64,000 nt of DNA from Escherichia phage cardinal: the sequence record PQ567651.1. One strand, 5' to 3'. Made by a program: the position numbers and the translations under genes. Under the pieces are notes generated by a model, which was given only the letters and a program-made list of their open reading frames with translations, was not told the DNA's origin and did no database searches. Positions 26,928-29,796 of this stretch are shown piece after piece. Numbering within the stretch: the stretch's first letter is position 1; each line of letters starts with the position of its first letter.

Positions 26928-27003
26928 TGGTCGTGGTAAACGGAGTCGAACCGTTGTTTCTCGATTATCGGTCGAGTGTACTAACCATCTGTACGATACC
27001 ACA
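26928..27003 (-). tRNA. tRNA-Ile (anticodon GAU), CCA encoded
   Basis: Manual cloverleaf: acceptor TGTGGTA/TACCACG, D-stem GTAC/GTAC, anticodon arm CTCGA-CCGATAA-TCGAG, T-arm AACGG-TTCGACT-CCGTT. Position 33 is C, which is unusual. Confidence 0.55.
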
Positions 27004-27008
27004 ATAAT

Positions 27009-27105
27009 TGGCAGCAAGGTGAGGAATCGAACCCCTTGATCTATGGTTTGGAGCCATATTGAGTACCATACTCTTTTAAATCTACCCGGCTATGAGTTCC
27101 TTGAA
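27009..27105 (-). tRNA. tRNA-like element with Trp-type anticodon loop (CUCCAAA) but no canonical acceptor stem; possible pseudo-tRNA
   Basis: T-arm AGGGG-TTCGATT-CCTCA, 3' end CCTTGCT-G-CCA, anticodon arm TATGG-CTCCAAA-CCATA and a D-like hairpin are present, but no complementary 5' acceptor at the expected distance. Confidence 0.3.
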
Positions 27106-27149
27106 GTGTCAATGCAATTTAATCATTACACCAGAAGGGAGGTATTTAT

Positions 27150-27228
27150 TGGAGGCGGAAATCGGATTCGAACCGATGATCTCCAGCATATGAAACTGGC
27201 GAGGACGACCATACTCCTCTATCCCGCG
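27150..27228 (-). tRNA. tRNA (anticodon CAU; Met/initiator-like with unpaired 1:72)
   Basis: Anticodon arm CCAGT-TTCATAT-GCTGG, T-arm ATCGG-TTCGAAT-CCGAT, acceptor 3' TTCCGCC-T-CCA; position 1 is C opposite C72. Confidence 0.55.
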
Positions 27229-27243
27229 CAATCTGTAGTAATT

Positions 27244-27319
27244 TGGTTGATAGTAAGAGAATCGAACTCTTCTCGCAATGCCTTATGAAAGCACTCGAAA
27301 CGCCAGCTTCACACTATCA
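27244..27319 (-). tRNA. tRNA (anticodon CAU; Met or Ile2)
   Basis: Acceptor TGATAGT/ACTATCA perfect, anticodon loop TTCATAA, T-arm AAGAG-TTCGATT-CTCTT, CCA encoded. Confidence 0.6.
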
Positions 27320-27407
27320 ATGGCTAACCCTTTATAACCCGTCTTGGCGTGGTATCCTTAACAGGACGGTAGATATCCGTTGCAAACCCTATGATATCTC
27401 TTAGATA

Positions 27408-27492
27408 TGGTAGCTAAGGTGAGACTCGAACTCACAATCCCTTGGGGCAATACGTTCTAAGCGTATCGTGTATACCATTCCACCACTTAGCC
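27408..27492 (-). tRNA. tRNA-Leu (anticodon UAG), class II
   Basis: Anticodon arm ATACG-CTTAGAA-CGTAT, long variable arm, T-arm GTGAG-TTCGAGT-CTCAC, CCA encoded. Confidence 0.6.
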
Positions 27493-27569
27493 ATAATAAG
27501 TACACCACTGTAAGAAGCCTCAATGTGCTATTGACAGTTAACCAAGTCTACTCCTTGGATGGTGTTATT

Positions 27570-27644
27570 TGGTGCAGAGAGATGGTAACGATCCATCCTT
27601 TCTACCTTTTCAGGGTAGCACTAATCCGTCTCAGCTATCTCTGC
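27570..27644 (-). tRNA. tRNA-Phe (anticodon GAA) with atypical T-loop
   Basis: Perfect 7-bp acceptor GCAGAGA/TCTCTGC, anticodon arm CTACC-CTGAAAA-GGTAG, T-arm GATGG-ATCGTTA-CCATC. Confidence 0.55.
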
Positions 27645-27649
27645 AAATT

Positions 27650-27725
27650 TGGTCAGTGCGGCAGGACTCGAACCTGCGACCTGAAGCGTCCAAGGCTCCC
27701 ACGCTACCAACTGCGCTACGCACTG
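27650..27725 (-). tRNA. tRNA-Pro (anticodon UGG)
   Basis: Acceptor CAGTGCG/CGCACTG, anticodon arm GGAGC-CTTGGAC-GCTTC, T-arm GCAGG-TTCGAGT-CCTGC, CCA encoded. Confidence 0.65.
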
Positions 27726-27732
27726 TAAATAT

Positions 27733-27807
27733 TGGCTGGAGATCTAGGAATCGAACCTAGTCATCACGACTTCAAAGGCCGTTGCCTTCCCACTAGGCTA
27801 ATCTCCA
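27733..27807 (-). tRNA. tRNA-Gln (anticodon UUG)
   Basis: Acceptor TGGAGAT/ATCTCCA, D-arm GCCT-AGTGGGA-AGGC, anticodon loop CTTTGAA, T-arm CTAGG-TTCGATT-CCTAG. Confidence 0.65.
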
Positions 27808-27906
27808 ATAAAACTAAAAATCACTTAAAAAGAACCGCTAGAGTTTGAAGGAGAAAACCATGAGCGAAAAGAGAAATTTTCTCTAGCGATTCCATTTAAA
27901 TAATCT

Positions 27907-27981
27907 TGGAGCGAGTAACAGGACTTGAACCTGCACCTGGAGGGTGGAAACCTCATATGCTACCATTAACACTATACCCGC
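27907..27981 (-). tRNA. tRNA-Gly (anticodon UCC)
   Basis: Acceptor GCGGGTA/TACTCGC (one GU), anticodon loop TTTCCAC, T-arm GCAGG-TTCAAGT-CCTGT. Confidence 0.6.
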
Positions 27982-27992
27982 TTAACAATATT

Positions 27993-28022
27993 ACTCTAAC
28001 ATATTATTAGCCCCTTTGTCAA
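27993..28022 (-). promoter_or_regulatory. sigma70-like promoter TTGACA-N18-TAGAGT at the upstream end of the tRNA array
   Basis: Minus strand TTGACAaaggggctaataatatgtTAGAGT about 7-12 nt before the tRNA-Gly 5' end; the -35 lies in the loop of a hairpin AGCCCCTT/AAGAGGCT. Confidence 0.4.
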
Positions 28023-28036
28023 GAGGCTTTTAATAT

Positions 28037-28457: not shown

Positions 28458-28536
28458 AAAATATTTGCTTGGTAGGATCTGATACCTACAATTCTAGAAA
28501 ATTCTAGAGGTTTCTATTAACTCTACAAGCACTATT

Positions 28537-28621
28537 TGGCGATGGATCAAGGATTTGAACCTTGCTAGAACTTTCGTTCACGGATTAACAGTCCGTCGCC
28601 CAACCACTAGGCCAATCCATC
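28537..28621 (-). tRNA. class II (long variable arm) tRNA with anticodon GUU (Asn-type) - unusual combination
   Basis: Perfect acceptor GATGGAT/ATCCATC, anticodon arm ACGGA-CTGTTAA-TCCGT, variable-arm hairpin GAAC-GAAA-GTTC, T-arm CAAGG-TTCAAAT-CCTTG. Confidence 0.45.
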
Positions 28622-28628
28622 TTTAATT

Positions 28629-28715
28629 TGGTGCAGGTAGTTGGACTCGAACCAACGAAGCCCCGAAGGGCAGGAGATTTACAGTCTCCAGCAATTGCCG
28701 CTATGCGATACCTAC
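28629..28715 (-). tRNA. tRNA-Tyr (anticodon GUA), class II
   Basis: Anticodon arm GGAGA-CTGTAAA-TCTCC, long variable arm, T-arm GTTGG-TTCGAGT-CCAAC. Confidence 0.65.
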
Positions 28716-28720
28716 GTGTT

Positions 28721-28795
28721 TGGTACATCGTGAAGGATTCGAACCTTCGACCTTGGAGTTAAAAGCCCTTGCTCTACCAACTAAGCTAACGATGT
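28721..28795 (-). tRNA. tRNA-Lys-like (anticodon loop CUUUUAA) with weak anticodon stem
   Basis: Perfect acceptor ACATCGT/ACGATGT, D-arm TAGCTTAGTTGGTAGAGC, T-arm GAAGG-TTCGAAT-CCTTC; anticodon stem AAGGG/CTCCA pairs only 3 of 5. Confidence 0.45.
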
Positions 28796-28923
28796 ATAAA
28801 TTATCTTTAAAATAGCCAGTGTTTGCGGCACTGACTATGAGGTATCGGTAAAATGGCTGCCACCATCTGCCGAAAGTTTACTCTGCTAAAGTAAGTAGCC
28901 TCAACGCTACATTAAAGATAACT

Positions 28924-29009
28924 TGGCGGTAGATGTAGGACTTGAACCTACACGCCGTTTCCGACGACAGTTTAGCAAACTGTTGTGGCTACCATTTCAC
29001 CAATCTACC
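28924..29009 (-). tRNA. tRNA-Ser (anticodon GCU), class II
   Basis: Perfect acceptor GGTAGAT/ATCTACC, anticodon arm ACAGT-TTGCTAA-ACTGT, T-arm GTAGG-TTCAAGT-CCTAC. Confidence 0.65.
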
Positions 29010-29017
29010 GTTTTTAA

Positions 29018-29170
29018 TTATTCAAAACAACCGGAATCTTTTTGTTCTGCTTTTACCATACGAATATTTTTACCATCTTCAGATTGTTGAAGATTAGAAT
29101 ACTCATAAACAACTTTATTATTTACAATCTTAACTCCGGTAACAACCTGTCCAATAGTTTTATAATTCAT
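29018..29170 (-). CDS. small hypothetical protein (50 aa)
   Basis: ORF track start 29218 overlaps tRNA-Ser(UGA); internal ATG at 29170 follows SD AGGAG. Confidence 0.3.
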   Translation of the reverse strand: MNYKTIGQVVTGVKIVNNKVVYEYSNLQQSEDGKNIRMVKAEQKDSGCFE

Positions 29171-29188
29171 AAAGCTCCTAGTTGAATT

Positions 29189-29278
29189 TGGAGGAAGATA
29201 ATGGAGTCGAACCATCACCGTATCACTACAATGGGCCAGGGTTCAAACCTGGTTGCGCACCGCTGCGCCCTACCTTCC
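29189..29278 (-). tRNA. tRNA-Ser (anticodon UGA), class II
   Basis: Acceptor GGAAGGT/ATCTTCC (one GU), anticodon arm CCAGG-TTTGAAC-CCTGG, T-arm GATGG-TTCGACT-CCATT, CCA encoded. Confidence 0.5.
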
Positions 29279-29341
29279 CGTTATCATACTTTAAATCTAA
29301 CATAAAACCATCTTGCTTGTCAAGCAGTTTTTAAAACTTTT

Positions 29342-29423
29342 TGGCCGGGGTGACAGGATTCGAACCTGCATACTCCAATTACTCGGTTAACGCCTGATTA
29401 GAAGTCAGGTGAGATACACCCCG
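29342..29423 (-). tRNA. atypical tRNA-like element (Arg UCU-type anticodon hairpin, no room for a D-arm)
   Basis: Perfect acceptor CGGGGTG/CACCCCG-G-CCA and T-arm GCAGG-TTCGAAT-CCTGT; hairpin CCTGA-CTTCTAA-TCAGG begins 7 nt after the acceptor; 23 extra nt precede the T-arm. Confidence 0.35.
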
Positions 29424-29495
29424 TTTTCACAGTAACTATAACAAAAAACTAAGTAACTGTCAAGATATTTTTACTAAAAATATTATTTAAATTGA

Positions 29496-29601
29496 AGCCT
29501 AGTTATGGAATCGAACCATATTTCGTATTTAGTTAGACAAAGCGGTCTAACATATTTTTCAGGCTTTGATGGCCTCGGAATTACCAAATACCCTACTAGG
29601 C
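29496..29601 (-). tRNA. unusually long (about 106 nt) tRNA-like element with UCA-type anticodon loop
   Basis: Perfect acceptor GCCTAGT/ACTAGGC, T-arm TATGG-TTCGATT-CCATA, hairpin AGGC-CATCAAA-GCCT, then a 7-bp hairpin GTTAGAC-CGCTTT-GTCTAAC where a variable arm would be. No CCA encoded. Confidence 0.3.
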
Positions 29602-29603
29602 GT

Positions 29604-29689
29604 TGGTGCAAGTGGAGGGATTCGAACCCTCAAGCATTTAAGCGTTGCGTTTTAAGCACAATGTGTATCACCAATTCCACCACACTTGC
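29604..29689 (-). tRNA. tRNA-Leu (anticodon UAA), class II
   Basis: Perfect acceptor GCAAGTG/CACTTGC, anticodon arm TTGTG-CTTAAAA-CGCAA, T-arm GAGGG-TTCGAAT-CCCTC. Confidence 0.6.
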
Positions 29690-29720
29690 ATATAGGAGAT
29701 GCATAGCACCTCCTTTTAAA

Positions 29721-29796
29721 TGGTGGTTCCCCAGGGTTACAATCCCTGCCCTCGACACTTATGAGGTGTGCGCTCTCGTCAGTGAGCTATGGAACC
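29721..29796 (-). tRNA. tRNA (anticodon CAU; Met or Ile2) with atypical D- and T-loops
   Basis: Acceptor GGTTCCA/GGGAACC-A-CCA, D-arm GCTC-ACTGACGA-GAGC (no GG), anticodon loop CTCATAA, T-arm CAGGG-ATTGTAA-CCCTG. Confidence 0.5.

Follow-up and report, generated by a model that had tools for sequence, protein, structure and literature searches.

The window analysed here is a 64,000-nucleotide (nt) stretch of the genome of Escherichia phage cardinal (sequence record PQ567651.1, one strand, 5' to 3'). It comes from a Justusliebigvirus, that is, a phi92-like virulent coliphage, and it carries a dense array of tRNA genes on its minus strand at 26928-29796. We propose, with a probability of roughly 75%, that this phi92-like tRNA region encodes 16 tRNAs, two noncanonical tRNAs, one tRNA-like RNA and at least one leader RNA, and that it serves both to supply decoders for the codons favoured by the phage and to replace host tRNAs that have been cut. 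The proposed function is partly supported, by the sequence of the region and by experiments on T5-like phages; expression of the array, processing and charging of its RNAs and protection against defence are what we infer from the sequence.

ARAGORN, run over the whole 64-kb window, identified 16 tRNA genes, all of them on the minus strand within 26928-29796, and no tRNA gene elsewhere in the window; CCA is encoded by 16 of 16 in the structures that the program drew. The Rfam tRNA model (RF00005, gathering threshold 29 bits) accepted 13 of the 16 at scores of 46.7-65.5 bits and added a 17th gene that ARAGORN had missed (29345-29423, 38.6 bits), for a total of 14 at gathering score. Four regions did not reach the threshold (27244-27319, 29189-29278, 29721-29796 and 27012-27072, the last at 22.9 bits), and 29496-29601 had no match to this model at all. 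The array thus consists of tandem tRNA genes on one strand that are recognised by tRNA-specific tools. An earlier note, made from the letters of this DNA, had reconstructed about 16 plausible tRNAs and three tRNA-like elements, with CCA encoded in nearly all of them and with several non-standard members. ARAGORN returned the same list over the same interval and the three further elements were located at 29342-29423, 27009-27091 and 29496-29601, while the outcome that the note had named as fatal, rejection of most calls by covariance tools, did not occur. The tRNA genes and other structured RNAs of the array are, from its 5' end:

29721-29796, minus strand: tRNA(CAU) 'C', probably of the Ile2 (lysidine) type; ARAGORN, missed by Rfam
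29604-29689, minus strand: tRNA-Leu(UAA), class II; ARAGORN and Rfam
29496-29601, minus strand: 106-nt tRNA-like RNA; ARAGORN at a relaxed threshold with the intron option, and a distant homologue
29342-29423, minus strand: tRNA-Arg(UCU)-like gene, 82 nt, with an NCCA end; Rfam (38.6 bits), family alignment and covariance model R1
29189-29278, minus strand: tRNA-Ser(UGA), 90 nt, class II; ARAGORN, below the Rfam tRNA gathering score
28924-29009, minus strand: tRNA-Ser(GCU), class II; ARAGORN and Rfam
28796-28923, minus strand: structured RNA with a 15-bp closing stem and three hairpins, between tRNA-Ser(GCU) and tRNA-Lys and abutting the 5' end of tRNA-Lys
28721-28795, minus strand: tRNA-Lys(UUU); ARAGORN and Rfam
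28629-28715, minus strand: tRNA-Tyr(GUA), class II; ARAGORN and Rfam
28537-28621, minus strand: class II tRNA with the Asn anticodon GUU, 85 nt; ARAGORN and Rfam
28383-28457, minus strand: tRNA-Thr(UGU); ARAGORN and Rfam
27907-27981, minus strand: tRNA-Gly(UCC); ARAGORN and Rfam
27733-27807, minus strand: tRNA-Gln(UUG); ARAGORN and Rfam
27650-27725, minus strand: tRNA-Pro(UGG); ARAGORN and Rfam
27570-27644, minus strand: tRNA-Phe(GAA); ARAGORN and Rfam
27408-27492, minus strand: tRNA-Leu(UAG), class II; ARAGORN and Rfam
27244-27319, minus strand: tRNA(CAU) 'B', elongator-Met-like; ARAGORN only
27150-27228, minus strand: tRNA(CAU) 'A', initiator-like; ARAGORN and Rfam
27009-27091, minus strand: Trp(CCA)-like gene, 83 nt; ARAGORN at a relaxed threshold, Rfam 22.9 bits
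26928-27003, minus strand: tRNA-Ile(GAU), the last gene of the array; ARAGORN and Rfam

The three CAU tRNAs are probably not redundant, as judged from their sequences, and would represent initiator, elongator Met and Ile2 types. The gene at 27150-27228 has its best match in the annotated T5 initiator (65%), and neither it nor any relative pairs position 1 with position 72 (C x C in the window; U x C or A x C elsewhere). Its neighbour at 27244-27319 is closest to the T5 elongator Met (54%), and the gene at 29721-29796, which has a D loop without GG and the non-standard T loop AUUGUAA, is closest to the annotated T5 tRNA-Ile2(CAU), with 64% identity. The tRNA-Ser(UGA) gene is about 86% identical to T5 tRNA-Ser1(UGA) and also has a sub-threshold Rfam match to tRNA-Sec (35 bits).

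Codon usage is consistent with supplementation of host tRNAs, one of the two roles that the earlier note had put forward. We compared 14,176 codons from 46 long open reading frames (ORFs) of the window, with 37.3% GC, to 14,570 codons from 40 annotated MG1655 genes. AGA is the most over-used codon (12.5 per thousand in the phage vs 1.2 in MG1655, 10.7-fold); ACA (5.3-fold) and AUA (4.0-fold) are also over-used by the phage, and AGU, CUA, UCA, AAU, UUA, GGA, UAU and CCA are 2-2.9 times commoner in the phage ORFs. Each over-used codon is readable by an array tRNA, with AGA depending on the odd Arg-like gene alone and AUA on one of the CAU tRNAs being of the Ile2 type. Compared with the remaining codons, those that have an exactly matching anticodon in the array are enriched (Mann-Whitney p = 0.008).

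The second proposed role, escape from defence systems that deplete tRNAs, agrees with the changes found in two of the phage tRNAs at the site that is cut. The tRNA-Lys, tRNA-Thr and tRNA-Asn of T5 jointly defeat the PARIS system, whose AriB cleavage site is 40/41, and T5 tRNA-Lys escapes AriB via changes at U39 and A41 (PMC12409363). Retron-Eco7 (PtuAB) depletes tRNA-Tyr and is defeated by a phage tRNA-Tyr (T5/SP15), and PrrC170 is defeated by a phage tRNA-Lys (PMC11555353). The window tRNAs have the same anticodons as these defence-defeating tRNAs, and the Thr, Asn, Tyr and Lys genes are adjacent to each other at 28383-28795, a set that comprises the AriB targets and the tRNA-Tyr depleted by retron-Eco7. 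Phage tRNA-Lys is identical to E. coli lysT at 57 of 76 positions, with the differences concentrated in the anticodon stem, where C39 U40 C41 stand for the host's U39 C40 A41 and only 3 pairs are left. Both of the positions that give T5 tRNA-Lys its AriB resistance, U39 and A41, are therefore replaced. Phage tRNA-Thr has G39 in place of the host's U39. These substitutions lie beside the 40/41 site, suggesting that the phage tRNA-Lys and tRNA-Thr would resist cleavage by AriB. The window tRNA-Asn, unlike these two, differs from its host counterpart in overall architecture and not at the cleavage site.

Sigma-70 consensus matches were scanned for, and sites of at least 10/12 with an extended TG were kept, which gave four promoter-like sites on the minus strand, each just 5' of a gene. 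These sites, the terminator that closes the array and the small ORFs are:

30129-30100, minus strand: P1, TTGACA-18-TAAGAT with TG, 5' of the 88-amino-acid ORF and then the first tRNA
29804-30070, minus strand: small ORF of 88 amino acids, Phi92_gp110 homologue (phrog_15056), directly 5' of the first tRNA
29463-29435, minus strand: P2, TTGACA-17-TATAGT, 11/12, with TG, 12 nt 5' of the 82-nt Arg-like gene
29323-29294, minus strand: P3, TTGACA-18-TAGATT with TG, 5' of tRNA-Ser(UGA)
29018-29173, minus strand: small ORF of 51 amino acids, Phi92_gp111 homologue (phrog_22441), inside the array
28037-28363, minus strand: small ORF of 108 amino acids with a GTG start, Phi92_gp114 homologue (phrog_8792), inside the array
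28022-27993, minus strand: P4, TTGACA-18-TAGAGT with TG, inside the array, 5' of tRNA-Gly
26814-26796, minus strand: intrinsic terminator with a 7-bp stem (5 G-C pairs) and a T run, closing the array

The three small ORFs have ribosome-binding sites, and their PHROG matches are to families without an assigned function. With its own promoter-like sites and terminator, and with small ORFs and structured RNAs interspersed, the region has the make-up of a phage tRNA cluster. The strong terminator and the interspersed protein genes had both been anticipated in the earlier note, and the annotation of phage Paula places a terminator at the same position. The TTGACA-N18-TAGAGT promoter that was said to bracket the array does exist, as P4, but it is internal and is one of at least four promoter-like sites. 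Two spacers of the minus strand, 27808-27906 (-27.3 kcal/mol, a long hairpin) and 28458-28536, fold into stable hairpins.

In the mechanism that we propose, minus-strand transcription would start from at least four sigma-70-type promoters and would end at one strong terminator, and host enzymes, presumably RNase P and those that trim 3' ends, would cut the transcripts into mature RNAs. The array would in this way provide decoders for the A/U-ending codons over-used by a 37% GC genome, together with replacements for those host tRNAs (Lys, Thr, Asn and Tyr) that are targets of E. coli defence nucleases, being either cut or depleted. As the Lys and Thr copies are altered at the nuclease cleavage site, phage translation could continue once the host tRNAs have been cut.

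A simpler explanation, which we consider somewhat unlikely, is that the array only supplements codons, and that its differences from the host tRNAs reflect neutral drift or foreign origin. The strong match between phage codon usage and array anticodons speaks for it; these anticodons all begin with U or G, or are CAU or CCA, as expected for an AT-rich genome, and several of the tRNAs are unrelated in sequence to those of the host (tRNA-Thr, for example, is identical at 39 of 76 positions). However, tRNA-Lys is host-like apart from two places, its anticodon stem and the terminal part of its acceptor stem, a pattern that points to selection there rather than to drift. Furthermore, Lys AAA/AAG and Asn AAC are not rare codons in the host, and homologous tRNAs of T5-like phages rescue infection from tRNA-cutting defences (PMC12409363, PMC11555353). 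It should also be considered that several observations weigh against the combined role in decoding and defence that we prefer. The promoter-like sites were recognised by consensus matches alone, and in the codon comparison the host was represented by a single 50-kb sample and ORFs were called on the basis of length. At the AriB site the class II tRNA-Asn has exactly the host sequence (U39 C40 C41) and would not escape by substitution. The T5 tRNA-Asn used in the PARIS experiments is an ordinary class I tRNA of 78 nt, and the result obtained with it is not transferable to the class II tRNA-Asn of the window; we therefore dropped those experiments as evidence on the latter, and the idea that its long arm shields the AriB site is pure speculation. 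Finally, in the BASEL phenotyping phi92-like phages were unusually sensitive to restriction-modification systems (PMC8594841), and are therefore not generally defence-proof.

Beyond these roles, the 82-nt gene at 29342-29423 raises the possibility of an unusual tRNA type. We tentatively suggest, at somewhat less than even odds, that it belongs to a widespread and apparently undescribed phage family of working Arg(UCU/CCU) tRNAs with a rearranged core, which would replace the canonical decoder of AGA/AGG in arrays that have tRNAs for the other amino acids. Rfam aligns its acceptor, anticodon and T arms, leaving 4 nt at the place of the D arm and an additional 20 nt ahead of the T arm. With just 7 nt (UAUCUCA) separating the acceptor stem from the anticodon stem, there is no standard D arm. 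The anticodon arm lies within a 3-bp helix (CUC/GAG), which is followed by UAAnUGGAGUAU, and the segment UUGGAGUAU lies 5' of the T arm. According to the rearranged-core reading, there would be no D stem-loop, and the two strands of a D-like helix would be placed before and after the anticodon arm, followed by a GG-A segment and the T arm. The UAAnUGGAGUAU segment, which the search pattern had fixed, could provide the equivalents of G18, G19 and A20 in the D loop of an ordinary tRNA.

Relatives of this gene were found in several phage groups. Full-length matches at 83-87% come from Felixounaviruses, from a jumbo phage of 375 kb and from a Klebsiella phage (annotated as tRNA-OTHER), and a partial match comes from a Vibrio phage. 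Altogether 253 records span at least 80% of the query, and a pattern scan of IMG/VR yielded 40 further loci; the loci come from partial genomes, and many of them are close relatives of one another. The relative in phage Antha is annotated as tRNA-OTHER, and those in ESCO32 and JohannJBalmer are without annotation. We aligned 24 distinct sequences without gaps, part of the segment 32-56 being fixed by the IMG/VR search pattern. For the proposed structure, 99% of the cells are paired and compensatory changes are seen in 15 of 20 pairs, values that none of 500 shuffles reached; sliding the partners by 1-3 columns reduced pairing to 35-46%. The sole supported extra helix joins C11-N12-C13 to G40-N41-G42 (11-13/40-42), and it is 100% paired with three pair types, the middle position being occupied by U-A in 20 sequences, by G-C in 3 and by A-U in 1. 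The minimum-energy fold, with a CCGA-GUAA-UUGG hairpin as extra arm, was rejected: it is 79% paired, shows no compensatory change and has one pair broken in 12 of the 24 sequences. All 24 have an Arg anticodon, UCU in 22 of them and CCU in the other 2, and this conserved Arg anticodon is found together with an NCCA end and covarying acceptor, anticodon and T stems, as in a tRNA-Arg.

The family is also set apart by its scores and its distribution. Covariance model R1, which was built from this family, gives its members at least 99 bits and ordinary tRNAs at most 38 bits. In six copies from Justusliebigvirus phages, the discriminator (G or A) is the sole variable position of the RNA body, and the P2 hexamers upstream do not vary either, while spacer and leader do. 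Among the loci examined that have at least 8 tRNAs, 28 carry the Arg-like gene and none of these 28 has a canonical Arg(UCU/CCU) gene, which is present in 5 of the 9 loci that lack the Arg-like gene. Arrays of 25-26 tRNAs that cover all amino acids depend on the Arg-like gene for AGR codons. Two rearranged Arg copies are carried by a single IMG/VR contig, 3300049893_000411 (L062 12999-13080 and 13348-13429): one with CCU, which scores 99 bits with R1, and a divergent one with UCU, which scores 52.6 bits and is called by ARAGORN as a 98-nt tRNA-Arg.

The nearest parallel is with the D-armless tRNAs of animal mitochondria, such as the Ascaris mt-tRNA-Ser UCU, which keep the acceptor, anticodon and T arms (PMC7609411). 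The phage gene similarly lacks a standard D arm and keeps the other arms. Unlike these mitochondrial tRNAs, however, the phage RNA has a full T arm with UUCGA and a covarying 3-bp helix that encloses the anticodon arm and is followed by a GG-containing strand, and it would need to work with bacterial arginyl-tRNA synthetase (ArgRS), EF-Tu and ribosomes that are not adapted to armless tRNAs. A literature search returned no description of a D-armless phage tRNA; its journal coverage was limited and it is weak evidence of novelty.

Two other elements also depart from the standard cloverleaf. The Trp(CCA)-like gene at 27009-27091 has an 8-bp acceptor stem, a 10-nt linker, a small D-like hairpin with a UGG loop, the anticodon loop CUCCAAA, G73 and CCA. 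In its homologues from Klebsiella phage FKP3 and a Hafnia phage of the Ounavirinae, compensatory changes are found in the 8-bp acceptor, the D-like hairpin and the anticodon stem, while the loop CUCCAAA, G73 and CCA are unchanged. The Rfam register for this gene, with a 7-bp acceptor from 27072, was replaced by the 8-bp acceptor from 27091, which covaries in these two homologues. The 106-nt RNA at 29496-29601 has a 7-bp acceptor, a D-like arm, a 4-bp stem with the loop CAUCAAA, a 7-bp extra arm and a T arm. In the window it ends in UUCA, not NCCA, and no more than 31 phage records contain it. The single distant homologue, from the Schitoviridae Salmonella phage UTK0002, ends in UCCA and shows compensatory changes in the acceptor, anticodon-like and T stems, thin evidence from two lineages that it may be conserved as a structured tRNA-like RNA. 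Nearly all of the records listed have no feature annotated at the Trp-like, 106-nt or leader RNAs, and a few have only a hypothetical protein.

We also considered that the Arg-like, Trp-like and 106-nt elements are decaying tRNA pseudogenes or processing debris without a function, which we regard as unlikely. ARAGORN rejects all three at default settings, Rfam gives them low scores or none, the 106-nt element has lost its CCA and is confined to few records, and some GenBank records label such genes tRNA-OTHER or pseudo. Decay is nevertheless hard to reconcile with the Arg-like family, in which 24 distinct relatives from several phage groups preserve almost complete pairing with abundant compensatory changes, in which the anticodon is always UCU or CCU, and which never occurs alongside a canonical Arg(UCU/CCU) gene. 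In the window the gene lies behind a near-consensus promoter-like site of its own, and the codon it would read, AGA, shows the strongest enrichment in the phage. For the Trp-like and 106-nt elements, the compensatory changes found in distant phages argue in the same direction.

The class II tRNA at 28537-28621 combines features that are usually separate. It has the extra arm GAAC-GAAA-GUUC and G73, and its anticodon stem-loop is identical to that of E. coli asnT over 16 nt, the remaining molecule being unrelated. GUU tRNAs of 83-86 nt also occur in Klebsiella phage 05F01, Phapecoctavirus, Seunavirus SSE121, Providencia PR1 and Proteus PM135, and in the Tequintaviruses Lindwurm and IrisVonRoten. 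Across eight phages, 3 of the 4 extra-arm pairs show compensatory changes, as expected of a true class II arm, and the GUU anticodon and G73 are invariant, with the loop CUGUUAA (UUGUUAA in two), as expected of a tRNA-Asn. Like the bacterial class II tRNAs (Leu, Ser, Tyr and Sec), it has a covarying long extra arm and a 3-bp D stem; unlike them, it has the anticodon GUU (Asn). Asn is not known as a class II identity in bacteria. No match to this tRNA was found by blastn in 5,426 complete E. coli genomes. A search of the literature for a class II tRNA-Asn likewise found no description, with limited journal coverage, and is weak evidence of novelty.

This combination invites the question of which synthetase charges the RNA. 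Were it seryl-tRNA synthetase (SerRS), serine would be inserted at Asn codons, as deliberate mistranslation or with the tRNA acting as a decoy. A D arm of 3 bp (GCC..GGC) that resembles that of E. coli tRNA-Ser could be taken as favouring this. A long extra arm and G73 are recognition features of SerRS (PMC7609411). We find charging by SerRS very improbable, because Asn codons make up 5.4% of phage codons, so that placing serine at them would be very costly, and because this is the sole GUU tRNA in the examined stretches of several unrelated phages. The anticodon stem-loop matches that of E. coli tRNA-Asn, and the GUU anticodon with G73 is the identity set of asparaginyl-tRNA synthetase (AsnRS), so that G73 would suit that enzyme as well. 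The extra arm is short (3-4 bp) and closer in size to those of Tyr and Leu than to that of Ser. An Asn identity thus seems much more likely than Ser, given that this is the only Asn tRNA in the stretches examined and given the share of Asn codons in the phage.

Upstream of tRNA-Lys, the RNA at 28796-28923 is best read as a pre-tRNA leader with a conserved structure. Its core, about 98 nt long, is conserved at 80-93% identity in 183 phage records from Stephanstirmvirinae, Vequintavirinae and Demerecviridae, and almost none of the records listed annotate it, one having a hypothetical protein only. The relatives used were drawn from individual GenBank phage records. In the consensus fold 98.4% of the cells are paired, with compensatory changes in 7 pairs, which none of 500 shuffles reached, and slid controls gave at most 1 compensatory pair. 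No Rfam family matched 28796-28923, no promoter was found inside the RNA at a threshold of at least 9/12, and an exact-pattern scan of IMG/VR detected only 4 loci. The leader reading is preferred because the RNA abuts the 5' end of tRNA-Tyr in HildyBeyeler, PBES 02, Spc35, Lindwurm and phiWec179, and because T5 has a leader of similar length there, also with a long closing stem, albeit of different sequence. The T5-like phages HildyBeyeler, Lindwurm and Spc35 have the leader RNA in common with the window, and in HildyBeyeler it is preceded by a promoter identical to the T5 promoter P14a. An exceptionally strong tRNA-Tyr promoter region has been described in T5-like phages (PMC11555353), and the leader may belong to this 'strong tRNA-Tyr promoter' region. 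Copies of the leader were observed in the compared stretches L018 (380-498), L012 (603-720) and L008 (3283-3398).

As a cluster, the array is already annotated and published, is ordinary for phi92-like phages and is not new. The 3.4 kb around it are 99.4% identical to Escherichia phage muut, and about 55 other Justusliebigvirus (phi92-like, Stephanstirmvirinae) genomes match the region at 96-98%, with 55 records spanning at least 80% of the query. GenBank tables list 15 tRNAs in muut and 16 in Paula, both without the 82-nt Arg-like gene, and the paper on phage BME3 reports the identical 16 anticodons, of which related phages have 15/16 in common (PMC12210895). The window is homologous and syntenic to these annotated arrays: those of phi92, muut, Paula, BME3 and ESCO8/9/32 resemble it in genes, order and strand at 96-99% nucleotide identity, and the differences are indels only. 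Within the genus the array varies by indels. A block of about 135 nt with the second CAU tRNA (27270-27404) is present in the window and in Paula and absent from muut, and muut has an insert of about 320 nt between tRNA-Gln and tRNA-Gly (L001 6951-7269) that the window lacks. An anticodon switch is also seen within the genus, as the ortholog of tRNA-Ile(GAU) (window 26928-27003) carries CAU in a near-identical body in IMG/VR contig 3300045988_049843 (L003 6221-6296).

Single genes have relatives outside the genus. tRNA-Pro (27650-27725) is about 95-96% identical to its counterparts in T5-like phages and tRNA-Thr (28383-28457) about 95% identical to those in Felix O1-like phages; such identity in otherwise unrelated genomes suggests that single tRNA genes may be exchanged horizontally between coliphages. 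The tRNA region of T5 (AY543070) resembles the window in having many tRNA genes on one strand, several internal promoters and small ORFs, in three CAU tRNAs (annotated Met, fMet and Ile2 in T5), and in holding odd RNAs, annotated there as 'stable RNAs' and 'tRNA-like stable RNAs' without an assigned function. Single genes (Pro and Ser-UGA) are common to the window and T5-like phages at 86-96%. Unlike the window array, the T5 region has at least 24 tRNAs and homing endonucleases inside it. T5 RNAs I, III, IV, 1, 2H and 3 have no blastn-detectable counterpart in the window array, and T5 RNA2 gave only an 18-nt T-arm match. A search for relatives in IMG/VR that was based on the NAMPT protein encoded nearby returned 4 loci only, too close or too distant to help. 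Four 'Campylobacter phage' records (MG065639, MG065645, MG065650 and MG065656; host C. jejuni) were matched by the class II tRNA(GUU) query at 75-100%, and records of this group also matched the Trp-like gene (98.9%) and the leader RNA (87.8% identity). These matches resemble Justusliebigvirus or Phapecoctavirus phages of E. coli, and the C. jejuni host labels of the four records look doubtful.

The array is flanked by portal and large terminase genes on one side and by NAMPT-like and PRPP-synthetase-like enzymes on the other. The NAMPT-like phosphoribosyltransferase (577 amino acids) and the PRPP-synthetase-like protein (297 amino acids) are encoded at 30543-33241 on the minus strand, between the array and the RNA-repair genes. 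They look like a nicotinamide adenine dinucleotide (NAD) salvage pair, which might offset NAD-depleting defences. The RNA-repair genes form one further feature:

35256-38038, plus strand: RNA heal-and-seal cassette of a cyclic-phosphate-processing REC protein, a phosphoesterase, an Rnl1-type RNA ligase and a P-loop kinase

The ligase has an Rnl1-type match of 54 bits, the REC protein has a cREC_REC domain, the phosphoesterase matches phrog_547 at 4.8e-55, and for the kinase there is a match to AAA_33 and a weaker one to phrog_505, a polynucleotide kinase family. A ligase is thereby encoded together with a phosphoesterase for end healing and a kinase, as in a T4 Pnk/Rnl1-like heal-and-seal system. 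An RNA repair cassette had been placed next to the array; it does exist, but about 5.5 kb away and divergently oriented, with the NAD-salvage genes in between. Cassette, NAD-salvage genes and array lie within the same region of about 10 kb. On the terminase side, the large terminase gene (within 22358-25411, minus strand) is split by a 970-nt insertion (23213-24182) that is absent from muut. The insertion contains an HNH endonuclease ORF (23377-24057) and an Rfam group I intron match at 23265-23453 (47 bits vs a cutoff of 50, E = 1.4e-10), and probably represents a mobile intron of group I that encodes a homing endonuclease.

Taken as a whole, the array repeats a cluster that has been published, and the roles likely for it are textbook-level ideas for T5-like phages. 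In the same arrays as the Arg-like gene, a class II tRNA-Asn and a Trp-like gene with an 8-bp acceptor stem are maintained in different phage families, possibly because tRNAs of altered shape evade host enzymes that rely on shape for recognition. The class II tRNA-Asn poses a clean, testable question of AsnRS versus SerRS identity. If the Arg-like RNA is indeed charged and used by E. coli ribosomes, bacterial translation would tolerate a tRNA without a standard D arm, and such a D-armless tRNA-Arg would be of interest to tRNA structural biology and to genetic-code engineering.

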